Source: Raillietiella orientalis (lineage: Eukaryota). From it: a stretch of DNA of 64,000 nucleotides. Location: positions 2,170,001 to 2,234,000 of the forward strand of contig JAYWIR010000006.1 of NCBI GenBank assembly GCA_036172245.1, written 5' to 3'. A model generated the notes under the pieces. The model was not told the origin of the DNA and made no database searches. It worked only from the letters and a program-made list of their open reading frames with translations. Shown here one piece after another: positions 40,701-64,000 of the stretch (the stretch's first letter is position 1; the number at the start of each line of letters is the position of its first letter). Position numbers and translations under genes: made by a program.

Positions 40701-41389
40701 TTGACCGTAAAAGAATGATGGAAAACCGTATTAAGTTTGTTCACGAATTTATATTTACAAATTACATTCACCGTACCCCACTTAATTCACATGGGGAGGA
40801 AAGAAGCTCAACAGCAACCATTTAAAGTATATTGGAGCATGTTGTTATTTGGCTCATCATACATTAAGCTCATTTGTATATGTGGCATACATGATGACAT
40901 TAAGGGGAGAAAAAATGTGCAACAAATTAAAAGTGTTGCTTTAGAATAATAATGATGAACTAAGGGAAAAAAATCAGAATTATGTTGAGTTTCCTTTTAA
41001 AATGAAAAGAATATTTCTCTTATATATTCCAGTGCCATGAGCAGCAATTTTCCAGGTATTCATGTGTACAAGTCACTCTTCATGGATTCATAAAAAAAAC
41101 ACACACACACACATATAAAAGATCTAAAACTCATTTAAAATAATTCAAACTAAGATGATCAAAACCAAACGGGGTTGATGTTTTGCTATATAAATGAAAT
41201 GAAAAACCATAGTCAAACCTACAAATAAACTGAGATCTGAATTGCACACGGAGAGTGTGTTTATCACTCGGATGTGTATTAAAATTTTTACAATAAAATT
41301 TCATAATAAAGTCTGTGAAGTATGCTCAGGCAGAATATGTGGTTCTGCCTGTCCTGGGACACTTGCCGTTACCGGCCCGCAGGCCGGTG

Positions 41390-42175
41390 AGGTCACGCTG
41401 GGACCCGAAAGATGGTGAACTATGCCTGGCCAGGACGAAGCCAGAGGAAACTCTGTTGGGGGTCCACAGCGATCCTAACGTGCAAATTGGTCGAAAGATG
41501 AATCGAACCATCTAGTTGCTGGCTCCCTCCGAAGTTTCCTTCAGGATAGCTGGAACAGAAAAAGGACGAAGTCTCATCCGCTAAAGTGAGAGATTAGAGG
41601 CCTTGGGGCCGAAATGACCCCAACCTATTCTCAAACTTTAAATGAGCGAGAAGTCCGGCTTGCTTGAAAGCTGAAGCTCGAACTGTCGGATCCATGAGCG
41701 CCCAGTGGGTCCATTTTGGTAAGCAGACTGGCTCTGTGGGATGAACCAAACGTTGGGTTACGGCGCCCGATGCGGCGCTCATCAGATCCCATGAAAGGTG
41801 TTGGTTGCTATGGACAGCAGGACGGTGGCCATGGAAGTCGGAATCCGCTAAGGAGTGTGTAACGACTCACCTGCCGAAGCAACTGGCCCTGAAAATGGAT
41901 GGCGCTCAAGCGTCGAGCCTGCGCCCAACCGCCGGGACAGAGCCGTTCCTGCGTTCCGGGCGCGTTGCGGAGGAACAGCAGGTTCCTCAGGTTCCGGCGA
42001 GAAGGAGGGTCGCGACATTGCGCGCAGAAGGGTTTGAGCGGGAGCTCGCCTGGAGCCGCCGTCGGCGCAGATCTTGGTGGTAGCAGCAACTACTCCAGCG
42101 AGATCCTGGAGGTCTGATGTGGAGGAGCGTTTCCATGCGAACAGCCTCTGAGCATGGTTCAGTCGATACTAAGTC
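41390..42175 (+). pseudogene. 28S rRNA: Isolated 28S (LSU) rRNA fragment, rRNA pseudogene
   Basis: Conserved LSU blocks GACCCGAAAGATGGTGAACTATGCCTG, ACCTATTCTCAAACTTTAAATG, CAGCAGGACGGTGGCCATGGAAGTCGGAATCCGCTAAGGAGTGTGTAAC, GCAGATCTTGGTGGTAG. Only ~0.8 kb, AT-rich non-rDNA flanks, a ~20-nt deletion near 41493 and substitutions in normally invariant positions. Confidence 0.95.
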
Positions 42176-44018
42176 CCCGGAGAGTGGGGTTATGCGTGTT
42201 TTTCAGGTCATACCTGTTTTGTATATTTTGAGGTATTCCTCTAAGAAACAAATAAATGCGTGCTTACCCTCAAAACCAAAACGGTTCCTAAATTTCAGTT
42301 TTAGTATTTCAGTGGAGTCCTCGAGAAGTACTTCCCGAAAATCACTTAAGGGCGTTTTTTGTCACGTCTTTAAGAGCTACTAAAAGGGTTTTTAATAGGT
42401 TTTAAAGACTTGCCAAGAAACGCTCTTTTTAGACATATTTTTATAATTTAGACAGCTATTTTGATAATGCCATTTGAAATCAAAATTTATAGCAATTATG
42501 ATATCACTGTTAAAAAATTCGAAGATCACTTTATCTTGTATTCTTTATTCTCTTATTCTTCTATTCTTTTTGTATGTGAGCGAATAAACCTTTATTTTAA
42601 AAAAATTCCAGATGTCTAAACGCAAAAAGCGGAAACAGAATTAATAAATCGAAAAAAAAAAAAAAAAAAACACTTGCACAATTCTGAGATACCCTAAAGA
42701 CTGTGATTTTTATTTTTATTTTTTGATTTATACTAATCTTGCAATCTGCACAGCTAATGTAGATTTTATATTCCAGGCACAGAAGAAAACAAAGGAAGAA
42801 AACATCTAATCTGACATTTATTTGAGAAACCCAGCGAGTGTCATCTTTTTCTTGGGCTTCATCGCTGGATCTTGGCACTCCAGTCTTTGGCTACAAGCTG
42901 AATATCAGAAGGATGCTGCCAATTTGTGGTTGCACTCCTTCTGTTGATGGTTTTTGTTTCCGTAAAGATGGATTTTTTCTTTTTTTTTCCTCCCCTCTCC
43001 CCCCCCCCCCCAATTAATTGCATTTCCTGATTATCCCACAAATCTTGATGTAAATTGACCACAGGAACATAACTCGAGTCGAATTAATCTACCCAGAAGT
43101 ATGCAAGGCAATCATAACTCAGTAAATCTTTTATATCTGATCAGAAAAAAATCATCAGTCCGTGAGGGATCCCCCACAAGTATGAAACCAAATTAACAAG
43201 TAAAAAAAAATTCCGATTTGCTAACGATGGGTGTCCAATTGAATCGAGTAGAAAATCCTGAAGACTTTTCAATTTGATTAGTCAAAGGTTTCTTAACTTT
43301 ATTGCATTCCGTCAGAATGTGTCCTCTTTACTGCCCAACTGTGGACATTCTTCTTCTTCACGTACACGTGAAGTACCTTCTCCTACTCTTCTCCCTCTGA
43401 TATCCTATTTGAAAAGGATGGATCCCTACTGGGAAAATTGCAAATGCTTCCCAAGTCCTCATTCCCGATTCCAAAGGTCGAATTCTAAAGAACAGTGGGC
43501 CGGTGTCGGGGCCGTTTCAAATCTGGTTACCAACATTCACCCCGAAATGTCTGTTCCGTAGAAATAGCTGGAAACTCACAGGCATTTCTTGGATTCGACC
43601 GAAGCAACATAAACCAGTTTCGAATGATGCAGACTCCCTCTTGCACCCACATAAGATTACATGGTTTTCTTGCTACGCTTTGTACCAAGAAATAATAAAG
43701 AGGAAAAAAAAAAATTCTTTTTTTTTTTCCTTTTGATTATTTGGTACAAATACTTAGTAAAAAAAAGGAATTGGTGAGAGGAGAAAAAAAACTATTGGGA
43801 GGCATGCTCTTGCGTTTCCACGAAGACCCAAACGAAAGTGGACCGACAGCAATCGCCTAACTTCGAATCTGAATTTTCCCAATCCGAATTTTTCCCTTTG
43901 GTCTGTTTGCCCGTTTGAGGGCATCGAGGAGGAAGTTACCAAGGCAACCCCTCTCACAGCTCCTTGCAAAAATGTAACATTTGTGCCGAAAACCACCGTT
44001 GTAAACATTTTTTTTCTT

Positions 44019-44936: not shown

Positions 44937-45713
44937 TCAAACTTCTGTACCCTTTTTTATTTCCCCTTCTGGGTTACTTAAGTGAAGGTCAATAGGTTTA
45001 TCATATCCCATCAGATGACAATAAATGTCTAAATCATGAAAATATCTGGGGTCAGCCAGAAAGGATTTTCCATGTGCTACAAAACTTGTGAAAATCCCAG
45101 GGACATCTGGAACCCTGACATCAGCTGCAGAAAACTTGTGCTATCAAAAAAGGGGATATGCTGCACATGTTTCTAACAGTCCTGCTTACCTCTTGCTCTT
45201 TCAGTAAAAAGGATAACGTTACTGCTGTAAACACATCAGTTTCAGAATTGTAACTCAAACGGAGAACATAATTTCTAGTGATCAGGTGAAGCAACACTGG
45301 TGTTACATAGGTGAAAATTCCCACCACTGATGCACTTGCAATAGCAAAAGAAGTGCTCATATTGCTTAGATTGTGCCATATAACAAAATGAGTGTACAGT
45401 CCCAATATGCTAGTGGACATGGAGAAAAACTTAGTTGCCTTGACAGCTCTGGATAAAGGACCTTTATAGACAAGAACTGGGCCAAGGTCTTTTTCTTGGG
45501 AAGTCAAAGAAATGTTTCCAGTAAAGAAATGTTCTCTCTTCTGGAGGATCTAAAACGAAAAGCTACTATACTATGCACACTGGTACCCAATAGAATAAAT
45601 TCATATGTGTTGCTGTAGGAAACCTACAATACGAGGTAACTTACATGAGGAGATATCTTGATCCAATTTTGGTTGGATATCTTCCTGCACGTTAGAACCA
45701 AAATTGCTGCCAT
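44937..45713 (-). CDS. TMEM70: Transmembrane protein 70, mitochondrial ATP synthase assembly factor (~210 aa; exons 45645-45713, 45190-45549, 44937-45140)
   Basis: LVYKGPLSRAVKATKFFSMSTS, two hydrophobic segments, TPVLLHLITRNYVLRLSY, VRVPDVPGIFTSF, YCHLMGYDKP; GT-AG introns keep the frame. First exon less certain. Confidence 0.93.
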
Positions 45714-48700
45714 TTTATGTCATACAAAGATGCTCTAGAGAAACATTAAACATGACCATGAATACATAATTTAAAGGATTTGAGATTCATTTTTGCCATG
45801 TAAATATTAGTATGTAAAATATGCGGTGCAATAAAAATTAGGGGTTAAAAAAATTTACATACACAATTGTTGATGAAATTCAAATTCTCGAAAAATTGAT
45901 GCTATTAAATACGTATGTATTTTAAATATTTCCAAGCTCCTACGTATCTTCAAGCAAACAACGCTTAGCTTCCACACACTGAGAAACTATGGCTACAAAC
46001 TCAAAATCAAGGGTAAATAAAAAAAAAAATAAATCGCTCTTGATAACTGGTTATGAATGGCGGCATAAACCGGACAGGTCCTTTGTATATAAAATAAACT
46101 GAGTACAGCTCTCCAGTTTTCTAGGAAACCTGTGTACACTGAGGTGATTGTTGATCAGGAGATACACAGCAAGAAGCGCACATGTTGAAACAAACATGAA
46201 GAAAATGAATTCAAATTAATGTTTTTTTAACAGACAGTCATAGTTTGAAATCTTCGGGCTATTTTACTAACGGTGCAAAATACAGTTGAAATACACAAAA
46301 ACTATGCATACAGAGAACATTCCAAAAAACTGGGCGTAGCTCCGGGACGCCTGATTATTCTTGAAACCTGCTACTCTTTCTATTAAGCAATCACAAATGC
46401 TAGTCAGTTGAACTTACTGTAGTGAATTCAGAAAACATAAGCAATGCATGCAAAATACTAAAAGGTTGACAACCACGTTTTTATTATTTAAGACGTCATT
46501 CGAATAGAACCAGTTTTACAGAGCATCCCCAAGTGATTTTTTTTTTATTATTTAATCTTCCTCTTTGCAAATTTCACAGTATAAATTCCTCAGTCCCCCC
46601 TTGCCAAGTTTGGTTTTCGGTGACACTTCACTTCTAGGTCGCGAAGGTTCCCTCCGAGTATGACGATTATTCCGATCGGGGATCGCACATCTTTTGCAAA
46701 GCAGTTGCCAAACCCCTTTTGCAAAAAAATTTGCGATTTTACAACTATCAGCTTTTGAAAATTACAAATGCATCTTCAACTATTTGTTACATGAACCAAA
46801 TAAGATACCTAGAAGCCAATTCTTCGCGAAGCTCTTATCCTGGAGACTCGTTGAAGAAAGCTTCAAGGAAACCTTGTCAACAAGTTGCAGCGCTTTTGAT
46901 GGTGATCTGTTACTTGGCGAAAACAAAAAATAAGTCTAAAGAACGAATTCTGTGGTAGGTGAGAAAAACTGAAAGTCCTGAATTCATTCGCCTTCATTTT
47001 AGAGCTCTTATATAACGTAGTTTGCTTGCTAGAACTTTATTTGAAACAAGAGTCCTTGGTTTAGTTTAGGGGAAATTCATTCAAATACCTTCGCTCAAGG
47101 AAACACCACGAGTTGTTTTCTTTGCTGACTTGTTCTTATATATCTTATAACTTATTGCAATAAATTATCTCATCTTATTGATCCTTATTAGATAATCTTA
47201 TTAAATATTGCTGTCAACTGACTGGTTCTGTTATTTGTTTTTTTTTTAATACTTCAAACCATTCTTTAGACAAAGTTCTCTTCCACATCTTTATTGAATT
47301 TTAATCTCTGAGAATAAAGTTTCCGTACAATCTAAAATTACACCAATACTGTTTACAAAAACTTCGACTCGCAATCGTGTATGCTGGAATGTTTATCTAA
47401 TAGATTTTCTCGACCAACATCATCCTCCGTTCTGTTCCAATTTCTCTTTCGTTGCTCATATATGATTCCGTAATTTTGAGTACCTGAAACAATTCTGGAC
47501 TAGGCAACTCAATTTTTCAATTTGTTCGAATGAAATGTTTTCCAGTTTCTGTGTTTTTGTTAAAAGAACAATCTCAACATTGCTTTTAAAAAAGTTTATG
47601 TTCCTTGTTGACAGCTGAAATGTTTATGTACTGGCCTTTGAATCGAAATACCCAGCTTCATCACAAAACAATGATCCTATCCTCGTGAGTAAAATGACTT
47701 CACAGAGTAATAAAGTTGAGAAGAGAGACATTTGAGAGACAATTTACTTTTAGAGTGAAGCTGATAAATTATAGCTTTGGTATCTTTTCTATTAGGTTTT
47801 CTTCCTGATGTACTGAAAGTGCATCAAATAGAAAGTACAACAACGCGTATCAAATACGCTAAAAGTAAAACTAATAGGCGTCAAAATATTTGATATCTAT
47901 ATAATTAATACATTCAACAAACATTGTCTCAAGAACACTGTCCAAATCTTTGGATTATCACAATATATGACATAAGACGATGAAATAAGGCATTTCATCA
48001 TGCTTTCCTGCAGACGATCCTGAAACCACTTATCAGTTGCAAGGGCATGACAGCAATCTTCTGAGAAATTGCGTCTAAACTTAGTGCATTCTGTCTCTTT
48101 GTTTCCACAAATCAAAGGAAACAAGTGACTCGAATATTTTGCTTCTTGAAGTCCTTAGGATGAGTACATTTTTTGGAATCATTTCTAAATCTGTTATTTT
48201 CGCTGAAGATTCCTTTCTCCTGAAACAAAAGTACATTTTATCCAAGAAAACTCAAGCATGTTGATTTGTTTATATAGGCTTACTAACATGGACAGTTTGC
48301 ATTTTTTTTTTCCCCATGCGTTAAAGTTAGGAGAAAATAAATATGAATGAATCTGTCTAGGCAAAATGATATCTCTGCCTATAAAATTATGCATTCTTCA
48401 GTTTTAAATTTATTTCGAGCGAAGTTTCTCATTTGCAAAATGCTGTCATATGTTTACCTAATTTTTTTCGCTCTCTGAAGAGTTTTTCAATGTAAAAATT
48501 GGTGTAGGAAAGCTACATCCTTTGTTTCTTCACGTTTTCTCCATCTTGTCTATGGTTTCCAGCTACCTGTAAACATAGACTTTTTCCAAGTTCTGAAATA
48601 TACCTTCACCTTCTCGATAACCGGGACATGGTTCCTGAATTTTTTTGACGAAAGTTTGGAGATTATGGCATTCTCATTGAATCCAAACGAATTGAAAAAA

Positions 48701-51700
48701 ATAATCCGAGCAATCGAACACTAATATCGGACAATGCAGTCCAAAACGGTCTTATTGTGAATTCTCTTTGCCAACTGTAGTGCACTCTTGCATTATCGTG
48801 AGAAGAGTGTCTTTCGTTTCCTGGTGTGGTGCCGGACTCAGTTCATGAGCCAATACCATCTTCATAAAATGGTGGAGAGATTACCTTTCTGCTTTCTCCA
48901 TAGTGTCGCCCCAAATCACTGCTTTCATTACTTCGACATACCATTACAACAACTTTTCCTACTGGAGATGCTGTATTCAACTTGCTCAATAAAGTCGAGT
49001 GATGTCGTGGAGTACAGCTTCCCTAAACGCTTCCTTGAGAGTTCGGAATATTCCTTACTGTTTCTTTCTCAAACATTAGGAGCCTCATGTGTTTGTGAAA
49101 ACCATTTCAAACATAATTGCATTCAGTGCTAATGTCTTCAAACTGTACTATCGCTCAAAGTTCGTGTTTCCTAATGTTGCGCAAAGAACAAAAAAAAAAA
49201 GGTAAAGAAAAAATCATTGAGCGGCCCTGGTGATTACTGGACGGATGGAAAATTCTTTTTGTGTGTTTTATTCGTTTTTCTTGCGATTACTCACTTAAGT
49301 TTGTTTTATCATCCATCTGTGCATTTTTAGCAATCTATTTTTCTCCTGTCCCTATCGCTTCTTATTAATGATCCTAATGTATTCAGAAAAAAACAGAGAT
49401 TAGAAATCACGGAAGACTAATTCAAGGCAAGGAATGTGCTGAATAAATTGTGATAATTTGTTGATATCGAGAAGAATTATCAACCTACATCTCCTAACAA
49501 AAAATATATACATAGAGTTGCATTTTTGCATTTCTACAGAGGATGCTAGATTAGTTGTCTACAAAATATCACCTTTCACAAACACAAAATACAAAAACAG
49601 GATTGTCTAGGGAAATAAAATAGAAAGAAGAAATTAAATATTTGGCAAATCCAGAAAACACGTTTTGAAAAGAACTGTCACCAAGAACAATTGAAAGAAA
49701 AAGAAAAAAAACTCATTCCAGTGAATGCTACATAAAATGCTTAAAGACTTTAAATAATATATTACACCTGTGGAGTGGGAGTACAGTCTTCTGAAGAGGA
49801 AAAATAAGGAATTGTTTATGGATGGAAAAAGCTTTCAAATTACAAATGCTATTTCATTTTTGTATATTTTGAGAACACTGAAGAAAAGAAAATAAGCTAA
49901 GGCACATAGCATGGGCTAAATTTTCAAATGATTAAAAACACTGTTAAGGTATCTTGATATTTTAGGTAAACCAACTATCCAAATTCCATTCTAGTTCCAC
50001 TTCCTGACTCCTTTTTCTATTACCAAACACCATTTACTGCGAAATTCAGAGGATCATAGCCCTGGAAAATTTGTAGATTTTTCATGTTGCACTTTAACAT
50101 ACACAAGTACCACATCTATGACAAATAGCAGTCTACGTTAATTTTTCTCTCTGTTTAGGGGCCAAACCGTTAAGGATTTAAATCTCAGGGAGAAAGTCTT
50201 GGAGAATGATTTCTGGCTTTTTCTTTGTGCAAACATTTGCTTGGCCACCTTGGTAGTTATGTCAACGGTTTAGAAGACGAGTTGAAGAATTGCGTGTTAG
50301 CAGTTAGGTGCTGATGGTATTGACCTTTGTTCCTTTGAAATCTTTGGCACCCTGACCAACTTTAAACTTTCAGATGATTAAACGCTACTCTTTCGTTGTG
50401 CTACAGTAGCTACACAGGCTGTTTCCAAAGATGTCACTATTTTTCTTTCACCTTTCACGATGGCAGTGCCGCTGTTGCAGTGTTTCACACGGTACTTACC
50501 TATATTTAGAAACTGATTCCAAATTTCCGGGATGCAATTCCGAATAGCTTGGAAAACGAGTGACACATGCACTCAGGCAAGTTTCAGGAATAACAAATTC
50601 CGAGTAAAAGAGCGCACCAATTTCAATGCCCTTAAGGATTAAGCAACGTGAGGTTTTGGAAGTCTAAAATTGGCAGCCCAGCAATTATGGGGTGATTGTG
50701 CTGATGTATGGGGCTTGTAGTCAAACTTGCATGAAAAATTTTGAATCCAAAATTCCCATAACAGGGTCAGAAAAAACAAGTGTTCACGATGTCAGCACAC
50801 ATTCTGCAAAGCACCGTGGGATGTCACAAAAGGAAAAGATAGGTAAGGAAAATGCAACAGTTTCTGGAAAATGCAACGGTTTTGTGGATGTATGCATAAC
50901 TCTTGGGTAACATTGGTGATTCAAATGCTTATTAGCTGAAAGGTATAGATTTCTGACACCACTTTCAGAAAGAAACAAAGTTAACAGTTGCATTCCACTT
51001 TGAAAATTCAGGTTTGGTTACAAGGAAATAGCCACTATCCCCAAATAGTACTTTTTGTTAAGTGCTGAAAGTGAACAGCCAAAGCAGTTTAAGTACAGCA
51101 GGCATTCAAAAGTTTGGATTGCATTTATTTTTAAGTTGCAGCCAATATAAGCATTTCCAATTAAAGCTGCATTTTTTGCAACGACATTTACATTGGATAC
51201 ATGCAAAAACTGCGTACATGCAATGTAATTCACAATAATCGTCTTGAGATTTGTACAAATCTGGATAATTTATTTACTTCTTTTAATGCAACTATAATTG
51301 TTAGAAATTTTCCTGAAACATTTTTAAATTACTGATGCAAAATTTACGCAGCAAGAATACACACATGGGAATGTAAGTCTATGATTATTTATGTGCTGCT
51401 GTAACAGCAAATTTTATAATTTTCACATTTTGATGGAAACTGAATTTGCTGTTTACATGATAGATTTAGTGCAATGGACTCAACAACTCTTCATCAACTA
51501 AAAGGCAATTTGTATTATTGAATTTAAACAGTTTCAGTATATTATCTAAGGATTACCATTGTGTTATTTTTCAAATCCTTTTTTGATCGAAAAAGACTCG
51601 ATTAACACATTCTCATATTAAAAAGTTGCATTTCAGTACACACATGTATGACATATCATACATTATGCTTTACTTTCATGAAAAATAGGCCATTCCAAGG

Positions 51701-52358
51701 TGAAATATCATTCTCAACTTTTTCTTGTTACTGATGTGTTGATCAATAACAAAAAGCAAATCTCAAGCTACCTGGGTAGCAGGCTGGATACTATGCCCTA
51801 TAAAGCACCTATATTTCAAAAATAAACAATTCCAGAAGAAATGATTACCAATGAATACCAGTCAAAAGTGCATTCCCTTCATGGAAGAGCAACAAATCAT
51901 AAATTAAGAGTTTCACAAGAACAATAATCAAAGTAAAGTATTTGATTTTGGGCGTTTGAGTTTGGCATATGCTTGATTTCACACTCTCCTATTGACAAGA
52001 GCTAGGTTTTTTAAGTGATTGCATACAATGAAGCTTTGTTGAAAATTCATCAGCTGTCTTGATTAAATTATTATATAGGCCAATTTATGGTACTATGATT
52101 AATAAATACATCTAAAGTATCACTTGGACATTCACATTCATCAATCTCAATGACAATTTACACACAAAAGAACCATGATACAAGAACACCTAATTAGATA
52201 TCAAACTGTATTAAAAACATCCTTGCTGAACTTCAAAATTATAACAAAAAACTGTGTACAAAAAGCACCTCAATGGTGTTTCATCATGTGAAGATTTTTG
52301 ATTCCAATCAAATAAATATATTGATCACTTTCAGAACTACTCATGTATTATCCACACT

Positions 52359-53318
52359 TTAGTTGACAGCAAGCAGCTCCACCTCAAAAATTAAAGTGGC
52401 ATTTGGAGGTATAGTATAGAGCATTAAGGATTATTTGGTTCAATTCATATTTAATTTACAAGTAGCTATTCATCAATAAAAAAGGATATACTCCAGGGTG
52501 TCCTCGTGCTCCATAAGCATAATCAGGAGTACAAATCAATTTGGCTTTTTCCCCTACACTGAGCTGGAATACATTTCAATTAAAATTCTTATCTTGGCAA
52601 TACTCAAACTCTGGCAACTCCTTCATCCCATCCTTTGATTACTTCTCCTCTCCCTATACAAAACTTAAATGGTGAGTTGCGATCACGGGACGAATCGAAC
52701 TTTACCCCATTTTCAAATGTTCCAGTATAATGCACAGTGACAATTTGCCCAGGCTTGGGAAAGGTTTGTCCTAAATATAACAGTCATCTTTATCGTCAGC
52801 ACATTTCCCAAAGTACATTTTAAGATTATCAGCTTTCAAATTTGAATGTTAAAAATACATTTAAAATAGTTCGAAATTTATGGAATTTCAACATTTGCTA
52901 AATGCTGTGGAATTAGTTTAAAGGAAGAAAAATGGGGAGGCAGTCAATGAAATCACTAACGATTACAAGGGAAAGCAATTAATGCAGTTAAAGGTTTGAA
53001 AAATTTCATAAAAGTTTCTTATGAGAACAACATATCTAACTGTAATATCTACTCAATGTTAAGGCAGATTTGCCTTCAAAATTTTTCATAACAGATCGTG
53101 AAAACATATTTTACACACTACAAACAGCATTATTGGCTTGAATTTTAATAAAGACTCAATGTTAAAAAAAAATAACCAAAGAAAGTTTTCGTTAATCCAC
53201 TAGACATTTTTTACATTTTTAAACATTACATGGATTATTAGTGTGAAACTATAAACAGTGTGGTTACAAAATATACTCAACCGTCTCCTTTATTTATTGA
53301 CTCAATTGTTACTCCCAT
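52359..53318 (-). CDS. FKBP12: FK506-binding protein 12, peptidyl-prolyl isomerase, 108 aa (exons 53282-53318, 52610-52770, 52490-52563, 52359-52413); missing from the ORF track
   Basis: Spliced translation [108 protein letters not shown]; exons total 327 nt. Confidence 0.98.
52414..52489 (-). other. U12-type AT-AC minor intron in FKBP12 (76 nt)
   Basis: 5' end ATATCCTTTT, branch site TCCTTAAT (52430-52423), 3' end ...TCTATAC; removal restores GHPGV-IPPNATL exactly. Confidence 0.95.
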
Positions 53319-55124
53319 TATGACAGTAAATATGTTTAAAAAAATTTAACGTTTATATTGAGATCAATAACAAGATAAACAGATTCTCTACAACAACGCT
53401 AAGCATAGCACGCAACAGCGTTTCTCAAACGGAAACGAATGATGACAGGATAATTAATTGTTCATGTGCATATGCTGTAAATATTGACAAAACAAATTCA
53501 ATTTACATTCAAATAACCAAATATAAATTGTTACAGAAAGTAGATTTTCTAAAACTATAATTTTTCATATAGCATCTAGCTAAATGTTAGGAAACACGTT
53601 TAGGATTTGAAATTACAAAAACCGCGAGTAATTTCTTTTTCCTGAGGAAATTCTTATGAAAATAAATTTTGTATTTAAAATGTGTACATTTAAGCCATAG
53701 AATGGCATAATATTTACTGTAGATTTTCATTGATGCACATAATTTTGTATAATGATGTATGCATTCATTCATGATTATGGTGAACATTTGAAACACCAAT
53801 GTGTCAAAAATGAACTAACAAGGCATTGAAAGGGCATGAATCAGGCAAATTAAGAATAATTTTCTCAAAACAGGGAAGCAAGATTTTTTGCATCCTTAGT
53901 CAAAAGAATGTTAGATCCAATCAATTTATTTTTCCAAGACAAAAAGGTATTTTAAATGTCATCGTGATATTGCTCGAAATGCATTTCTTTCTTCCAGCAC
54001 AACTACAAAGTGCCAACTGCCCGAAGTAACTCATAATTAGGCAGCATGCTATAAAGAATAACTTAGTATACTTTCACATAGCAGCAGCTTGAGAAAGTAA
54101 CCAAGAAATCGGTATATACTAATCCGTAGATTATTGATAGAGATTATTGATCACTGAATCCCATCTTAAGATCAGGAAGATAATATGTGCATATTCTACT
54201 TCCCTCCAAGAGAGATTTGGATTACAACATGAAACTCTTTTGCGCAACTGCTTAATAGTCCAAACTGTTGCTGCTTTCATTTATGAAATGCCAAGATTCA
54301 GCATAGCAAGCAACTTGATAGCAGAGAAGCCACCTACAACCATCCTATTCTGAAAAGGCAACAGCACTGGGCGTTTCAGTTCATTCTCAACTTTTATTTT
54401 GTCGAGACCATTCCCTTTATTGACCACTTTAAGCTTACTCCTCAAAACGTTCCCCCGGCATCATTCTAACCACAAGAGAAGATTCTTATGAACCACTTTG
54501 GCTCTGCGTATGTGTAATGCTGCTTTCCTTTCCTTGTTTCATTGGATTTTATGACTTGAAAACTCATAAGCATGTACTTCTTCACCTGGACATTGACAGA
54601 ATAATTCCTCCTCGTCTGATCGAGACCGGCCAAGTCATCTCTTCGTCAGAGAAGTCCAAAAAATCTTATTACAAAAACAAACAAGTTTGCGCTTTTCAAA
54701 ATAAGTCAGGCTGATGCTACGAATCCTTAAGTACCTTATGGGTCATCTCTCTTCATCTTTACTTTGCGTTGTTTCTGTTCATCACGGAGCGACTTCTGTA
54801 TCATAATAAAATCCCAAGAAACTCAACGGGAAAAAAAGTTCTTTTGACTCCCGAGATTTTTTCTATCATTGCAAGATTCTTATCGGAAATAGGAATTCCG
54901 AAAACTTTTTTCCGGCCCACTTTATGTTCAGAAGCCATGACTTGTCCAAACGCATGCATATTCCTTCATTTCTAATTTCGCATGCACACTTGGCAACAGA
55001 TGGTTTCGAACGACACGCATTAGACACATGGCATCTACTTTCTTTATGAGCGTTTTTTATTATTATTTTTGTTGAAGTTGAATACGTTATTTTAACATAC
55101 GGCGCGCTGACTCTTAATAGAAAT

Positions 55125-55697
55125 TTATCTGATACACATTTGACTAGAAAGTGCTACTGAAGAGAATTTCATTTTAGGAAACACACTGGGAACCAACGTA
55201 ACAACCGGGGAATGGATCTTAATCTGCCTGATGTGCGTATCACGTCCATTCTGATGGTTGCTAATCACTGCTATTTGCACCATAAATGTACGGATCGGCT
55301 TTCCATGGGCGTTTTTCAGGGGAATCATTACCCATCCAGTGGGCTCCATTAGATCTACAACTTCAATCTCTTGCAAATCATTAAAATGGGTGCCAGAACG
55401 AATGGAAATCCGATTAGGTGTATAGCTCTCATCATTCTTGTACTCCGCAAACAAGAATATGTCACAGATTGTTGTTTTTTTGTGGAACTGAATATTGACA
55501 AGATGAGGTTGGGGTCCATCTGACTGCCAATAAGTGTCCAAAGCATCATCTCTTAGCTGATTCACTCCAAACCCTGGCTTGCAGGAAGATAGACTCCACA
55601 CAGCCTGGTTCCCCACTTCTCGCACTTCTCCCGTGCGTTCCAAATCGCAAGGATCCATATAAGTAATGATTCCTCTACTGCTCACACTATTATTCAT
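55125..55697 (-). CDS. ANAPC10: Anaphase-promoting complex subunit 10 (Doc1), intronless CDS, 190 aa
   Basis: VREVGNQAVWSLSSCKPGFGVNQLRDD..TYWQSDGPQPHLVNIQF...DESYTP...NHQNGRDTHIRQIKIH and the C-terminal IR tail; first ATG at 55697 (the ORF track starts at an upstream TTG). Confidence 0.98.
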   Translation of the reverse strand: MNNSVSSRGIITYMDPCDLERTGEVREVGNQAVWSLSSCKPGFGVNQLRDDALDTYWQSDGPQPHLVNIQFHKKTTICDIFLFAEYKNDESYTPNRISIRSGTHFNDLQEIEVVDLMEPTGWVMIPLKNAHGKPIRTFMVQIAVISNHQNGRDTHIRQIKIHSPVVTLVPSVFPKMKFSSVALSSQMCIR

Positions 55698-55710
55698 ATC
55701 GTCCAATGAC

Positions 55711-55730
55711 CTACAAAATTTGATTTTATT
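55711..55730 (-). promoter_or_regulatory. AATAAA overlapping the RPP30 stop, followed by a 3' splice-acceptor-like site upstream of APC10
   Basis: Minus strand reads GAA TAA AATCAAATTTTGTAG|GTCATTGGACGAT ATG; AATAAA at 55730-55725, AG at 55712-55711. Confidence 0.6.
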
Positions 55731-56875
55731 CTACATCTTCCACAACACTGCTGATCTCTTTAACCACCCACTGTTCCCCCGGCTTCAGATCATTAATGGT
55801 TTGCATCATTGTCACACACTTGGCAGATTTGCGACTTTCTACAAGCACATATCATTCTTTCTGAAAAACATTCTGAATACATACGTCCATGCAGAATTGC
55901 TTTTCTAGGATTGGCCACAATAGCATCTTGTGCCAATTGTTCATTTAGTCCAAATAAACTGCTACTTAGATTTCTTTAAGAAAAGTATTACAGTCTTTAC
56001 ACTTTAAAAGGATACAGGTTAATGACATCATAAGGTCCACGTAAGTCACTGGGACACCTAGCACCACTTGAAATAATGATTTGCTACATGACACATTTTT
56101 CAAACAGATGAGAAAAAACGATAAAAAAAAAAAAGGATCCTACCTTGCCATTAGCTATCTGATTCAAGGATTGAGCTAATGAAATTGTGTTCTGACATGC
56201 TGATGAAGATGACAAAACAGGACTGTAACACAGCTCCACATGGATCCCACGTCTGATCACCTGGGAATACTGCCCACGGGAAAAGTATAAAAACCTCTGT
56301 GCCTCTAGAGTAATAATATCAATAGGAAGTGTGGTAGCTGCCATCTGAAAGAACATTTTCATTGCATCCAATTGGATCTTTGTCTAACCCCTAAGATAGA
56401 TGCTGTCAATGGTTCCACAGCCAAAATATCATAAAGTTCGATGGTTTTGTCTCGCTGCTACAAGGAGTTTTAAGCAGCAAGATGATTCCCTACAGACCAG
56501 CTTATAAGCTTTGTCATCATGTTGCAGCTGCACTGTCAGTCGTTGCAGTATGTTAGGAAGTTGCCTTGCATTTGGAGGCTGCCAACTTTTAATCTCATCT
56601 GGGCTCAATGATAAATCAACAGGTGGTGGCACACTGATAGGTGTGTGCATACTACCCTCTGCTTTACGTTTCTTACTGGTACTACCCAAATGGGAATCAC
56701 TGATGACTGTATTCACTACTACTGTATGATAGCCCACTGAAAATGACCATTCAAACATCTGAGTAACAATGATGCAGATACCTTCTATGGCTTTTCTGAT
56801 CAGCTTTTTACATTCCAGATTGTCCTGGGATGCACTACATTGCAGTGCAAGATCACAGAAACCAAATTCTCCCAT
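55726..56875 (-). CDS. RPP30: RNase P/MRP protein subunit p30 (~287 aa; exons 56782-56875, 56498-56736, 56389-56457, 56144-56344, 56016-56083, 55885-55964, 55726-55838)
   Basis: FCDL, GYHTVVVN, ILQRLTV, LYDILAVEP, RGIHVELCYSP, GKQIIISSGA...LRGPYDVINLSSLFGL, AILHGQSRK match the Rpp30 family; exons total 864 nt in frame; introns 40-60 nt. Confidence 0.95.
55965..56015 (-). other. U12-type GT-AG minor intron in RPP30 (51 nt; 54 nt if the next AG is used)
   Basis: 5' end GTATCCTTTT, branch-like TTTCTTAA shortly before AAG, no polypyrimidine tract; removal restores YDVINL-SSLFGL. Confidence 0.85.
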
Positions 56876-56989
56876 AAGGAACTCTAAAACCAAATGGGAC
56901 AAAAAAAACGAAAAATTATTTCTGCATTACACTTTAGATCACAAAATAATATTCATTTCCCATCATCCCGTTCCATTATTCCCAACTGT

Positions 56990-58802
56990 CTACAACCCCA
57001 ACTTCTGGCTGGAGAATAATATCACATTTTCCTGGAAATCTTTACATAATTCAATCCCTGCCTTCTTGGCAGCCAGATAGGCACAACCTAAAGCAGGTTC
57101 CTTGACTCTAAACATGAAAATCTGCTCAAAGGAAAGGGGACTTGTGGCTAAAGCTGCAAAAAAACGTGGCTGAAGATATTCCCAACTATCCCATACTTTG
57201 CCAATGCACAGAACTGGCAGGTCTTTCTGCAAAAACTTAACACAGAGGTCCTTTTGAATAAGTCTCTTGCAAACCTTTTTGGCAGAAGTGGCTAGCGGAA
57301 CTAGCATACGTCCTAATTCCCAACCAGCTTCACCTAAGAGCCACTGGCTGAAAGCATCACCTTGCTTTGCACACAAAGCAATCATTTCAGTGAAGGAAGC
57401 ATAATGAGCTTTGTCAAAATTGGAGAACCAGTGAGGCAACATCCCCTCCCTGATAAAAAAAACACTATTGGAAGTTTCAATCGCTTCTTGCCTCCTCTGG
57501 ATTTTGAAATGCTCTAGCATCTTGTCATGTAACAGTTTTGTGGAGAATGGCAGCATTGTGACACCTTCTGCTTCTTCAAATATAGTCATGACAGCCTGAT
57601 TAGCAATCCACCAGGCTGATATGAATGACAATCTGATTCACACTCAGTTCGAGTGGTTCAGCTACTCACCACTACCCTTATCACCAATCATATTCCCCCA
57701 TCCACCACATGACTGAGCAACTGTGCCATCTTTCCCCAGTAAAACAGAGTTCGATCCTGTGCCACTAATAATCACAATTCCTCCTATTCTCTGGATTGAA
57801 TTTCTGATATTGATATCTTTTCTCACCATTAGGAATAACTAATTCTGCATGTCCCAGAATATCATTAGACAAATGGTAAGCATCAGCTAAATCAGGGGCT
57901 TTTTCCTTAAGGGTATCCAATAACCGGGCATTTGTTTTTGGTTCGTTGCAGCCACTGAGTGACAAACCCTTAACAAACCAACCAAATTAATTTCACGGCT
58001 AAAAATCGAGGAAGAGTATAATTTCTGAAATTATGAAGATTCTGACTTCACACGAATAACAATTTAATAACAATCTTGAATAACAATTTACCAATGACTT
58101 CAAGATGATACGAGATTTGAACTTAGCAGCTATCTCATTTTTGGAAGACTGTACTAGATCAATCAATGCATCTGCACATTTTTCAATGCCTAAAAGCTGA
58201 AATTTATAACAATTAAATTAGATCAAACGAAGGCAAAAACTGATATTTTATTTCCAAACAAGTAACATGAAACTGAGTTCCAAATGACTTGGCATTTTAT
58301 GATACAAAAAAGAAAAGGAAAGAAAATAGTTTGAGTGAAAACACTGCACAAATAGGCATAATCTACAAAACGAACAGTCTACTGGTCTGTCTAATGAAAT
58401 CTACAAAATGTAATAAACCTACGCCTAGAATTTGCCATCTACACACTCTTGAAGAAGCCACGAAAGTCTTTGACGAACAGATGTATTCGGTAGTTGATCA
58501 TTCAATCAAACAAAAGGAGACGCATTTCAACGCATCAAGAATCGGGAAATCCCGCAGTTGCAGCTCGTTGCTATTCACATCACTGGAGAAACGTGCAAGA
58601 TTGCATGCATTCATCCTTACCCAGTGGTTTGTTCCCCCGGTATGCTTGCTGCAGACCTGGTTGCCATTTTCGTCCACCACCAACAAATGGGTCGACGTCG
58701 CCCCTCTGGGTTGAGGGTTCGCAGGTACACACCAAGACCTTGTAGGGCTTGCACTTACCCGTTGATGCCTCCAAATACGTGCTTCTCGGGAAAAACATCC
58801 AT
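56990..58802 (-). CDS. NAGK: N-acetyl-D-glucosamine kinase-like protein (exons 58759-58802, 58621-58705, 58092-58196, 57827-57968, 57670-57783, 57492-57615, 57275-57449, 56990-57226; last two introns are in frame and inferred)
   Basis: [85 protein letters not shown] match the animal NAGK pattern. Confidence 0.93.
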
Positions 58803-61594
58803 GATGACCCTGCCACGTTTCCTCCTTCCCTCTTCTTGATGGATTCCTTCTTCCCGCTCATTCGGCAAAACTCGCGGGAAGGGCGCCTTCCCTGCCCTGA
58901 CCCACGGCAGCCCGCTGGCGCGAACGGCATGCGTTGCCGCAAAACTCTGCAGAGCTTGCACGGGCCAACATGGAAAAGACTGCATGGAGGGCAAATGCTA
59001 TGAAAACGAAGGGTCACGAAAATCTGCATGCTGACCTTTGATGAAGGCACCGGAACATTTCATTCGCACTGTGGTGTTGGTTAAAACAAAGCAAAACGAA
59101 ACGAAATTGCAATGGTCACACATAGACTGGGAACGGAGCAGTCAGCAATCAAACCCAAATTCAGTGGCTTTTTGTGCCTGCCACAACAGATGGGAGAGAG
59201 ACTAGTTCTGTTAATACTAAGCTGCCGCCGACTGGCAAACGCAATTTCATTCAAGAATCAACTCACAAGAAGTGAAACTTAAAAGCACAGTTTTGAGGAA
59301 ACCGCTGCAGATCTGGAGTTGAGAGCCATCCGCCTGGACTTTGGGTGCTATCAGGTTCTACGGAGCCGGGAGTCTTTTTCATTTTTGGGTTTTGAAAAAT
59401 GGAATGTCTTTCTTTCCAGTACTTCCATCCCTCTTCACGGAGTCGGAAATTCCGCTCGGAGACTCCATTGCTCTCAGGATGCCTAGCAGATCCGAAGAAA
59501 TTCCATTTTTTCATGGGTGCCGGAGGGCTGCCGTTCTCTGAATTCAAAAACACGGCATGTTTTCTCTCCGCTGGAGCCAATCAGTGTCACAGGGATATTG
59601 AGCAATAGGAGTCGTAGGCGGGGCTTCTGGTGCTAAAAACAAGCATTTAAAGGGAGAAGACTGAAGCCGGTTCTAAATGTCTGGACATCTCGACACGGAT
59701 CAGGGCTGCAGTTCCGGCAGGGTTCTCGACGCTCTCGTCTCCGAAAAACACGCAGAAAAAAAAAACACGCATCTGGATAGCTTCCCGCCCCGTCAGCTAT
59801 TCCTGGAAACCCATGGAGGACATGCAGGGAGGGCGCTTAGTGGAGCGTGCTAGGAGTAGGCTGTTCGTTCATCCTGCACCGACTCGCCGTCCGATGAACC
59901 CCTCTGCTTTTCCTTAGAGACGAGGATGACTTCCCTTCTCGGCGACGGACGCTGTCATAGGAACGAGAGAGATCATCGACATTATGCATTCTCTGAGACA
60001 AGCATGGAAGACGTTCCGACCACGCGATTAACGGATGGATGGCTGTGCGGGCAAGGAAGGTGAGGAGCACTGGGATCTTTAACGAGAACAGGAGCGAGAG
60101 ACTTAGAGGGCGCGATCATCTCTCATCCCTCTTCGGGGTGTCCTGCTGCAACTCTTCCTCCGCTTAGGCAGAACCTAATTTTCGAAGGGGAAGACGAAAT
60201 GAGGCGGTTCATTCCCAGTCCTTTCTTCACTTCCTGAAGGTCTTCCGAAAAAACGGGAGCTTCGAAGGATTCGTCCGGATGCCGACAGCTGCCGATCCGG
60301 CGGCTCGCCGAACTGGAGTCTCCTCTGCTCTCCTGAGGAACTGCAGGCTTCTCTTCTATTCCCTTTTCTTCCCGGTGATCTCAACGTTCCGCTCTGGATC
60401 TCTTGCAGTCTCCGCCTAAGCCATCTTCTCCACAAAGCCTAATATGGAAGAAGGAAAGGAAAATATCGGAGAAGGAAAATCCCAACAACTTTCGGTTCTC
60501 CTTGCATCCCTCCTCTCCTTCTGGGACCGAGCTTCATCCCTACCCTCAGCCATCCACCGTGCTCTTCTGAAACGCCGGCTCGATACCCTGGCATTTCCCT
60601 TCTCTTCTTCCGGCCGTGGTGTTGCGGGATCCAGCAGCCGCTTGTTGAAGGGAGGACAGGAGCGAACACGAAGGATTTAGGCTTCACAGCCTGCAGTTGG
60701 CGACGTTGGAGAGTCCCAACGCCACTGCTGACCGACTCGATGGAGGAGACGATCATGGCGGTCCAGATGCACCCTACGACGCTTGTGCGCAAGAGCCACA
60801 GCGACGTCCACGACGGGAACAGTTTCCTTTCTTAAAACTGGCGCGCAGCAACGTGAGTCAATAGACTGCTCGATACTTCCTCTGAAGTGAGGGTGAGCGA
60901 GCGGTCCCCTCTCCGCTCTGCCCGCCTCCCTCGCTGAACGGTGGGGAGCGTCCCGCCAGAACCGCGGCAGGTGCGGCGAGTCCACCGAGCCCGGCACCTG
61001 TTACGGGACGAATTCCCTTCCCTTTCCGCGAGGCACGGGAGCGTCCAGAGGAGTCCCCCTCCAGCTCTCCCGAGGGCACCGCAAGAGAGCTGCCGCCCAG
61101 AAGGCGCGGCGTCCCTAGGACCTCTGCCTCCGGTTGAAACCGGCGTATCGGGAGGTCCACTCTCTCGTCGCATCCACAGAGAGAAGGGCGCCTCGATGAC
61201 CCGAGCTGCAAAGGTGAGCAGCTTCTCCTCATCTCTGACCAGGTCCACAGAGTCCCTTATCCCACCTGATGGACGCTTCACCCCATCCCCTTCCCGAAAC
61301 TGCGGGGTTCCTTCTTTGTCCTTTTTTTGCCTTTTCATGCCACTCAGCACCACCGTTGTTGCCGGCGTTTCCTCCTTCCTGCGCGTGGAGGAATTCTAGA
61401 CTACCTAGGATATGGTGGGAATCCTGCTTGTTCCCTGCAGCGTCTAGTCGCACGAAACGCCCCGGGAGCAGCCGAGCGTTGGTTCCTCCGCAGCGCCCCG
61501 CGGCGGCTCCCCGCGGACGCGCGCGCGCGACGATGCCGGCAACGAGCGGAGAAGCCGGGATCCGCGCGCGAAAACCATCGACCACGGGGCTGCA

Positions 61595-62805
61595 GCGGAC
61601 TCCCCTCCCCCCCACCTATCTGACAGGACAGCTGCCGCCTCCAGCGGCACCGGAAGCAGGAGCAGGAGGGACAAGGGAGGGCCGATCGCTCCCGCCCGCG
61701 GTGTGGTTGCAAGGGGAGGAGGGCTCGCGATCCCGCCGTGGACTCCTCCGTCCCCAAGGGGCCCTCCTCGGTCTTTACCCGATGCCCCGCGCGCTCGGAG
61801 CCAGCGACGTGAAGAAGGGAGGGACTGCCAACACCCCTCTTCTCCGCCTGGCTCGCACCAGTCCCGTTCCGCGAAACGCACCGACGGAAGACTTCTCGAG
61901 GGGCTGACCACCCCGCCCGAACTCGCAGCATCCCCCCTTTCCTGCAGGGGAGTTGGCCCCCGGGGCCTTCTGCGAAGGGGCCGCTGCCGCTTTTCTCGAT
62001 AGAGGCGTCCCTTCTCTATCCCTCTCCCTCTCGAGTCCCGTGGGAAGGGGAAGGCGCGGCTTTTCTGCCTTCCCCTCTCTCCCTCCCGAGGCATTCCGGC
62101 TCCAGACTCGCCCCTTCCTTCATTCTCGAATCGCTCCTCCCCCCGCTGCCCGTCTGGGAAGCACCAAGAGGTCGCTGCAACGCCGCGGAAGGGAGCCACG
62201 CGTACCCACGGCGTACACTCCTGCGCCCCGCGATGGGGCTCGGATCACGCGCGCGCAGACCCGGCCTCGACCAAGACAGAGAGAGGGGAGAGGAGGGACC
62301 GGGCATCCCTCTGTCTCCTGAGACCTCCCCCTCCCCTCATCAGCATCCGCGCCGGTCCTCTCTCTCGCCGGCTGCGCGTGGCGACCCTCAGGGGAGGTCT
62401 CGTTCGCGGCCCGTCGGCGAGATGGCGGGCCCGCCGGTCGACTCGGGTCCGCGCTCCGCCCGCGGCGGCGCCCGCGCGCGCGCCCTCCTCCGCGTTCTCG
62501 AGAGGCGCCTCCCGCGTGGCCGTGAGCGGCGCGCGGCCAGTTGCCGTTTGCGCGCGCGCGAGGCGAGTGTGACGAGGATGTGCGGGTCTGCGTGTGCCGA
62601 CGGCGAGCCGGCAGCGGGCGGAGGCGAGTAGAGCTGGGGCAGGTCATCATCAGCCCCCTAGGGCCAGAGAGAGGGAGTCCGGCGCCATGCCGCGGCCGCC
62701 GCGGGCGGGAGCGATCGGCCCTCCCCTGTTCCTCCTGCTCCTGCTCCTGGTGCTGCCGGCGGCGGTGGTCCCGTCAGGTAGGTGGGAGAGGGGGTCTGCA
62801 GCTCC
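61595..62805. repeat. Inverted repeat pair (~61595-61715 and ~62690-62805, ~1 kb spacer)
   Basis: CCCACCTA(T/C)CTGAC...AGCAGGAGCAGGAGG(G/A)ACA(A/G)GGGAGGGCCGATCGCTCCCGCCCGCGG on + at ~61610-61701 and on minus at ~62699-62788; also visible as near-identical peptides PTYLTG...EGRSLPPA in opposite-strand ORFs. Confidence 0.85.
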
Positions 62806-64000
62806 TTCTCTCTGTCGACTTCCCCCTCCCCCTTCCCGGACCAATGGGCCGGAGGAGGCGGAGGATGTCGCGCAGCAGCGAGGAAGCTTCCCGATGTGCC
62901 CGCGCTGCGGCGCGTGGCATGCCCAGAGGTCGTCGCACGCGCGCGCGCACGGTCCCTTCCCAGCTCCACGCCCCTCCCTGGGGTCCCTATCCAGCTGCCC
63001 TCCCTCCGCCAAGCGACCACCGCCGCCGCCACCGACGGCAACGGCATTCAAGGCGCAGGCGCACAGCAACCCTTCCGGCAGCGGCAGCGAAGGCGCCGCG
63101 AGCCGCTCGTCCCCCGAGGCGAGGCGGAGGGAGGAGGAGAGGACGCGCCGCGCGCGCCCGTCCCGGTGACCGCAGAGGTCACCGCGCCTCGGCCAGCCGC
63201 TGGCCTCTCCTTCTCCTCCTCCTCCTCTTCCTCGCCTGCAGCGGCGCCCCGAGCGGACCGCGGTCGGGATGAACCCGACGCCGGGCACTCGCCCTCGTGT
63301 ATCCTAACTCCCCTCGTCCCCACCTATTCCTCCCCCTTCCTTTCTCCCTTCTCTGGTTGTTGGAGCTTCCCGAAAGATAGCCAACCCTCGGGGCAATGCT
63401 GGGTGGTTTCGACGGGGGAGTGTGGGACGGAGATGGGGGGAGGACCCCGAGGGGAGGGTGGGGGAAGGAAGCGCAACCGCTTTCGATGCGCTGCCAAGAA
63501 ATGGGTCGCGCGGGCTGCTGTGGAGTGGCTGCTCGCATGCCCGGCCAGAGGACTTCCGGTTCTCCCTCCTCCTGTCTCTCCGGGACGCAGGAAGGCGGGG
63601 TGTCTTCTCCATGGCTTCCCGTCTGCCCACCTCCTCTTCCCCTTAGGCCGTCCCTCTCTCCCGGAACCCGAAGAAGGGAGGGTCTCACGACGGGTCCGCG
63701 AGCGACGGGTGCGCGGCCGTCTCCCGGGAAACCGCTGCCATCTCCGGGATGGATGGGTCCACTCGAGGGAAAAGGAAGAGAGGCCTACGGAGCCCATCCG
63801 TCTCCCGCCGTCGCGTCTTTCTGGGTCCCTCCCTCCTCCTCCTCTCAGGGGCGCCGCCGCACCCGTGACCTGGGGCCCGAGCGCCGCCCCCGGAGGAGAA
63901 GACACAGCACGCACGCCTTCTTCCTGCCGTCTTCGTGCGGACGGTGGTGCTTCGCAACGACCGCTGAGGGAGGGCCCGCGGGCAGGAGGCGGAGCAGGGG

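Follow-up and report, generated by a model that had tools for sequence, protein, structure and literature searches.

Introduction

Operons whose transcripts are resolved into separate mRNAs by spliced-leader (SL) trans-splicing arose several times in animals, and each new lineage in which they are found helps to test why. Several explanations for operons have been proposed, among them that they keep the expression of housekeeping genes stable, help cells to recover after growth arrest or make up for gene-body methylation that has been lost. In this study, we analysed a 64-kb stretch of DNA (contig JAYWIR010000006.1, positions 2,170,001 to 2,234,000; hereafter the window, with positions counted from its first letter) in which three intact and functionally unrelated housekeeping genes lie head-to-tail on the minus strand at 58802–55125, namely NAGK (N-acetylglucosamine kinase), RPP30 (RNase P/MRP subunit p30) and APC10 (anaphase-promoting complex subunit 10). 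We consider it plausible, with a probability of roughly 0.4, that NAGK, RPP30 and APC10 form an operon whose transcript is resolved by SL trans-splicing coupled to the formation of 3′ ends; co-transcription of the three genes by any mechanism is somewhat more likely than not.

The intercistronic distance in operons of this kind has a median of 1 bp in Ciona and of 31–57 bp in Oikopleura, an arrangement likened to the SL1-dependent operons of Caenorhabditis elegans, and intercistronic regions of about 100–112 bp are given for Caenorhabditis in the same account (PMC7986045). The operons described for the chaetognath Paraspadella gotoi consist of genes less than 250 bp apart, are validated by the leader, hold 18% of genes and are enriched in housekeeping functions; that work also reports that gene-body methylation has been lost in chaetognaths, and proposes a link between trans-splicing and such loss (PMC12460157). 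A leader is documented for a calanoid copepod (PMC4664967) and leaders are listed for Parhyale (PMC5111886), and the account in PMC7986045 gives operons as unreported in copepods, amphipods and rotifers as of 2021. No report of an arthropod operon was found in the titles and abstracts of the literature searched, which is not proof that there is none. The dicistronic genes of Drosophila, in which two same-strand frames are separated by a very short spacer, belong to an arthropod that is not known to use leader trans-splicing.

Gene models and junctions of the cluster

The elements of the cluster, all read on the minus strand, are as follows.

58950–58350, minus strand: GC-rich, CpG-rich 5′ region covering NAGK exons 1 and 2 and about 150 nucleotides (nt) 5′ of the ATG; putative promoter for all three genes.
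58802–56990, minus strand: NAGK, 357 residues, seven exons; ATG at 58802, stop codon at 56992–56990.
58802–58759, 58705–58621, 58196–58092, 57968–57827, 57783–57670, 57615–57492 and 57449–56990, minus strand: NAGK exons in the splice model.
56989–56876, minus strand: NAGK–RPP30 gap, 114 nt, from the end of the NAGK stop codon (56990) to the RPP30 ATG (56875).
56875–55726, minus strand: RPP30, 286 residues, seven exons; ATG at 56875, stop codon at 55728–55726.
56875–56782, 56736–56498, 56457–56389, 56344–56144, 56083–56016, 55961–55885 and 55838–55726, minus strand: RPP30 exons in the splice model, separated by introns of 45, 40, 44, 60, 54 and 46 nt.
55730–55725, minus strand: canonical AATAAA over the RPP30 stop codon TAA (55728–55726), 12 nt before the APC10 acceptor.
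55725–55698, minus strand: RPP30–APC10 gap, 28 nt, from the end of the RPP30 stop codon (55726) to the APC10 ATG (55697).
55697–55125, minus strand: APC10, a single exon of 573 nt, 190 residues.
55061–55056, minus strand: AATAAA 64–69 nt past the stop codon of APC10; putative signal for the 3′ end of the whole unit.

The initial annotation had named these three head-to-tail minus-strand genes, and the identification was borne out by matches to Pfam, PDB and named homologues together with the gene models. APC10 matches Pfam ANAPC10 at 6e-76. RPP30 exon 4 matches Pfam RNase_P_p30 (1e-11) and human RPP30 chain 6AHR_I (2e-5); exon 2 alone had no significant PDB match, and the support for the remaining RPP30 exons consists of an open frame and GT–AG continuity. 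The last exon of NAGK matches human NAGK in PDB (2CH5/2CH6; 8e-19), and the start codon is fixed at 58802 because residues 9–350 of the spliced 357-residue model align with named NAGKs, with E values down to 4e-71. The spliced NAGK and RPP30 models translate without internal stops, and the introns of the cluster are of the GT–AG type and 40–60 nt long, besides two of 123 and 424 nt. A candidate 42-nt GC–AG intron in NAGK (57491–57450, minus strand) keeps the frame whether it is spliced or retained; retention would give 371 residues, and it is here that the PDB alignment shows 14 residues inserted with respect to human NAGK.

The gaps of 114 and 28 nt and the exon starts at 56883 and 55710 that had been proposed hold on re-reading of the sequence. 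In the first gap, the U-rich tract (56914–56900) is present as claimed, as is an acceptor-like TTTTAG whose last base, 56884, stands 8 nt ahead of the RPP30 ATG, and the absence of a canonical AATAAA is confirmed; neither AATAAA nor ATTAAA occurs in the 114 nt, the only such hexamers being AATAAT at 56980 and 56920. The second of these (56920–56915) is a variant rather than a canonical signal and lies 29 nt ahead of the acceptor-like AG at 56885–56884, after which the exon would begin at 56883. Five ATGs are found in this gap, all upstream of 56925; the last is at 56927 and none follows until the RPP30 ATG, so that a 5′ end near the acceptor would give a clean leader.

At the second junction, the acceptor-like AG (55712–55711) closes TTTTGTAG 13 nt ahead of the APC10 start codon, and the exon would begin at 55710. 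The AATAAA that overlaps the RPP30 stop codon is a feature that the initial annotation missed. Since it stands only 12 nt before the acceptor, the end of the RPP30 mRNA would almost coincide with the required start of the APC10 mRNA. From 59300 down to 54700, AATAAA occurs just three times on the minus strand, at 58252 in a NAGK intron, at 55730–55725 over the RPP30 stop and at 55061 after APC10; two of the three in these 4.6 kb thus fall exactly at the 3′ ends of RPP30 and APC10. Both junctions resemble those of SL-resolved operons in having a signal for the 3′ end of one cistron shortly before the acceptor of the next, in variant form at the first.

The spacing is also of the kind seen in such operons. 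Successive same-strand gaps between coding sequences measure 114, 28, 1806 (APC10 to an FKBP12-like gene) and 6645 nt (FKBP12-like to a TMEM70-like gene), so that co-oriented genes with very short spacing stand against ordinary gaps, in a comparison of four gaps from one window. All five genes located in the window are on the minus strand. Few Pfam matches lie outside the cluster: only the TMEM70-like frame (45124–45549) among 76 open reading frames (ORFs) of at least 75 residues in 34000–60500, with the cluster ORFs excluded; only the FKBP exon (52607–52783) among 76 ORFs of 42–74 residues in 45600–55120; and none among 116 ORFs of at least 130 residues in the GC-rich flanks. Given these few matches and the length of the other gaps, the tight packing is local and does not reflect general compaction of the genome.

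CpG pattern

The ratio of observed to expected CpG (o/e) is 0.23 for 56001–58000, against about 0.9 in the GC-rich flanks. In bins of 150 nt, it is 0.72–0.98 in the four bins of 58950–58351, at the 5′ end of NAGK, and 0–0.45 from 57900 to 55651, across both junctions, with the single exception of bin 57000–56851 at the first junction (two CpGs, o/e 0.62); beyond 55200 it is back to 1.0–1.6. Over the 300 nt upstream of the ATG, the values are 0.87 for NAGK, 1.25 for the FKBP12-like gene and 0.76 for the TMEM70-like gene; for RPP30 and APC10 they are 0.28 and 0.43, all from small CpG counts. The only clearly CpG-rich and GC-rich 5′ end in the cluster is that upstream of NAGK. In many invertebrates, gene bodies are known to be methylated and promoters unmethylated, and the CpG depletion seen here is what germline methylation of this kind would be expected to leave. 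Read in this way, a single CpG-depleted domain with one CpG-rich 5′ end fits one promoter for the three genes.

The initial annotation had read the cluster as a polycistronic unit. The anatomy fits co-transcription, a reading strengthened by the AATAAA at the RPP30 stop, the tight gaps in a gene-poor setting and the single clearly CpG-rich 5′ end; the gene models, spacing and signals can be read off the DNA, and it is from them that we infer a common transcript.

Proposed mechanism and comparison with known operons

In the mechanism proposed, a single NAGK–RPP30–APC10 transcription unit would be driven from the CpG-rich region upstream of NAGK, and its primary transcript would be cut into three mRNAs. 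The upstream mRNAs would end by cleavage and polyadenylation, at AAUAAU (56920) for NAGK and AAUAAA (55730) for RPP30, and the downstream mRNAs would receive their capped 5′ ends by SL trans-splicing at the adjacent AG. With exon starts at 56883 and 55710, trans-splicing would leave 8 nt before the AUG of RPP30 and 13 nt before that of APC10, and the RPP30–APC10 junction would be essentially without an intercistronic spacer.

The latter junction resembles those of Ciona intestinalis and Oikopleura dioica and of the rare SL1-type operons of C. elegans, in that a poly(A) signal stands at the stop codon, the acceptor follows 12 nt on and the ATG 13 nt after that, with essentially no spacer, and the genes of the cluster are likewise housekeeping genes. 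It differs from them in that the cluster is known from DNA sequence alone and that its APC10 looks protostome and arthropod-like, not like that of a tunicate or nematode. The Oikopleura genome is compact, whereas the neighbourhood of the cluster is gene-poor. The NAGK–RPP30 junction is closer to the SL2-type operons of C. elegans, with 114 nt from stop to ATG and a U-rich tract before the acceptor. However, the 114 nt here take in the whole 3′ untranslated region (UTR) of NAGK, which would leave only about 10–20 nt between the poly(A) site and the acceptor; in addition, the hexamer is AAUAAU rather than AAUAAA, and SL2-type operons have a specialized second leader. Gene-body methylation is reported to be lost in chaetognaths, whereas NAGK–RPP30–APC10 is strongly CpG-depleted in its gene bodies, and unlike the dicistronic genes of Drosophila it comprises three long frames with a canonical poly(A) signal between the second and the third.

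A junction of the same design as RPP30–APC10 was found at the environmental locus L003 (3991–4954, plus strand), with a different upstream gene. There, the stop codon (TAG) of an LSM-domain gene lies 40 nt before the ATG of an intronless APC10; AATAAA begins 1 nt after the LSM stop and is followed by a pyrimidine-rich AG before the APC10 ATG.

Protein affinities

APC10 has 1521 homologues at E ≤ 0.001, of which the best, 65–79% identical, are from arthropods. Named matches include Macrobrachium (71% identity over 98% of the query), Armadillidium (79% over 79%), and Priapulus and Capitella (71%). In an unresolved tree built from 45 rows chosen from the 120 matches listed, the query falls outside the supported malacostracan, hexapod and lophotrochozoan groups [Shimodaira–Hasegawa-like approximate likelihood-ratio test (SH-aLRT) values of 99, 98 and 98, respectively] and pairs weakly (80) with an ostracod, both being on long branches. 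The malacostracan clade that excludes it (SH-aLRT 99) holds the amphipod Hyalella, and no copepod sequence is present among the 120 matches listed. An exhaustive search of 1.8 billion representatives with the last exon of NAGK returned 220 matches at E ≤ 0.001, the best at 37–38% identity; the named NAGK matches are taxonomically mixed (dragonfly, amphipod, shrimp, ostracod, isopod, mite, fishes and mammals; 31–38% identity). Word-based homologue searches with the last exon of NAGK and exon 4 of RPP30 gave no matches.

The arthropod host suggested in the initial annotation agrees with the best APC10 matches, but the tree leaves APC10 outside the supported malacostracan and hexapod groups. The APC10 and NAGK matches weakly support an arthropod-like protostome host from a poorly sampled, fast-evolving lineage, which by the APC10 tree would not be an amphipod. 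A chaetognath host was set aside, since the gene-body CpG depletion would be at odds with the loss of methylation in that group.

Evidence against a spliced leader and alternative explanations

Several observations weigh against an operon resolved by a spliced leader. By a weight matrix trained on the 12 cis acceptors of NAGK and RPP30, too few sites for anything other than a noisy matrix, the candidate acceptors score −4.8 (RPP30) and 2.0 (APC10), the leave-one-out scores of true cis acceptors ranging from −8.1 to 8.3; among random 40-nt stretches of local non-genic DNA, 74% and 30%, respectively, contain an AG site that scores at least as well (P = 0.74 and 0.30). NAGK has no U-rich acceptor near its own ATG. 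Plausible GT donors are found upstream of both acceptors, at 47, 49 and 59 nt for RPP30 and at 36, 38, 54, 57 and 61 nt for APC10. Distances of this order are usual for the local introns, and the two acceptors, described as unpaired, may have cis partners. No SL RNA family has an Rfam match in the window, either at the gathering threshold or at E ≤ 1, although a 64-kb window would be expected to lack an SL RNA gene even in a trans-splicing species. The two copepod leader primers published in Table 1 of PMC4664967 have no match each at up to three mismatches. The APC10 tree and the NAGK matches do not place the host in a lineage known to trans-splice. Exon pieces of RPP30, NAGK and TMEM70 found no match (tblastn, E ≤ 1e-3) at any of 80 environmental APC10 loci (42–72% identity), and a Pfam scan of the upstream ORFs of seven APC10 loci (106 of 116 ORFs, the 10 of L007 and L008 being left out) gave no RNase_P_p30.

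In favour of the operon, the motif TTTT(N0-2)AG sits within 13 nt of the RPP30 and APC10 ATGs alike and ends within 20 nt of only 0–4% of random positions (0.00 to 0.04 per site) in four combinations of region and strand, the motif having been picked after the sites had been seen; that the acceptors exceed chance is doubtful. The cis acceptors at the locus have weak pyrimidine tracts. The TMEM70-like gene carries a pyrimidine-rich AG (tttctctag) about 20 nt upstream of its ATG, and such a site near the start is present in three of the five genes. The Rfam matches obtained in the window were a partial large-subunit (LSU) rRNA, a weak U2 and a chance microRNA match, none of them an SL family.

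The local donors and the commonness, by weight matrix, of acceptor-like sites of such quality would suit three independent, overlapping units, in which the promoters and start sites of RPP30 and APC10 lie inside the 3′ part of the upstream gene and the AGs are idle or belong to short 5′-UTR introns, the donor distances matching introns of 40–60 nt. Closely packed, overlapping head-to-tail genes exist in arthropods without trans-splicing, and a minor CpG bump at the start of APC10 (55800–55601; six CpGs, o/e 0.79) is a further point for independent units and against a single promoter. We regard such units as a serious rival, somewhat less probable than the operon. Nothing in the gene-poor surroundings forces such packing, an APC10 transcript begun inside RPP30 would have the AATAAA at 55730–55725 in its own leader, and any RPP30 leader longer than 49 nt would include up to five upstream ATGs. 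RPP30 and APC10 also lack a CpG-retaining patch like those 5′ of NAGK and of the FKBP12-like and TMEM70-like genes, and no TATAAA is present on the minus strand between 58208 and 54700. The spacing and CpG evidence for one unit would apply equally to co-transcription without trans-splicing, in which alternative polyadenylation would yield mono-, di- and tricistronic mRNAs and the downstream frames would be reached by reinitiation, leaky scanning, internal entry or cis-splicing from an upstream exon. Insect dicistronic genes and genes sharing a 5′ exon are precedents for the cis-spliced form, the 28-nt spacer would be short enough for termination–reinitiation, and the intronless APC10, with its A-rich 3′ flank, could be a retrocopy inserted in the RPP30 3′ UTR. 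Long upstream frames with many AUGs make downstream initiation inefficient, however, and those of NAGK (357 codons) and RPP30 (286 codons) are long and have many internal AUGs; cis-splicing of NAGK exon 1 (44 nt from the ATG) to 56883 would leave the RPP30 ATG in another frame, preceded by an upstream frame that overlaps it, and with a canonical AATAAA at the RPP30 stop most transcripts would be cleaved before they reached APC10. Leaderless co-transcription seems to us the less probable of the two rivals, though still a serious one, and the SL-resolved operon is retained as the favoured reading.

Neighbouring features of the window

Two further genes were located downstream of the cluster.

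53318–52359, minus strand: FKBP12-like gene; first coding exon from the ATG at 53318 (MGV...), GT donor 37 nt on, stop codon at 52361–52359 placed by eye.
45713–44940, minus strand: TMEM70/TMEM186-like gene; ATG at 45713, Pfam match at 3.5e-20.

The FKBP12-like exon at 52607–52783 matches Pfam FKBP_C (4e-18), and the 200 nt upstream of this gene contain CpGs at an o/e of 1.39. A partial LSU rRNA (41383–42434, plus strand) corresponds to model positions 665–1888 of 3401 with 565 bits and stands alone amid unrelated DNA; judged by eye, its resemblance to rRNA tails off near 42190. A U2-like element (37717–37898, plus strand) scores 48.9 bits, barely above the threshold of 46. The two have the look of stray or decayed copies.

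Positions 1–34000 and 60000–64000 are occupied by blocks of 55–71% GC with a CpG o/e of about 0.9, in contrast to the CpG-depleted gene region of 30–41% GC; no tandem array scoring at least 200 was found in these blocks. At 62688–62780 (plus strand), in DNA of 70% GC, an ATG precedes a leucine-rich stretch resembling a signal peptide, with a GT donor after it, and a plus-strand gene may have its first exon here. This segment is overlapped by a 67-nt inverted repeat with arms at 61635–61701 and 62699–62765 that are 90% complementary.

Implications

If internal promoters were used, the locus would be a case of ordinary gene overlap. A further-reaching reading, which we consider doubtful, is that the cluster is a true SL-resolved operon of a poorly sampled, arthropod-like lineage whose gene bodies are still methylated. 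On that reading, operons would occur in a group in which they are unreported so far, and the case would be a counter-example to the connection of trans-splicing with lost gene-body methylation put forward in PMC12460157. Annotation would be affected as well, since gene finders merge or cut short genes arranged in this way, and these would be given the wrong promoters. Confirmed in an arthropod-like host with methylated gene bodies, the NAGK–RPP30–APC10 operon would extend the known range of SL-resolved operons and challenge the methylation link.

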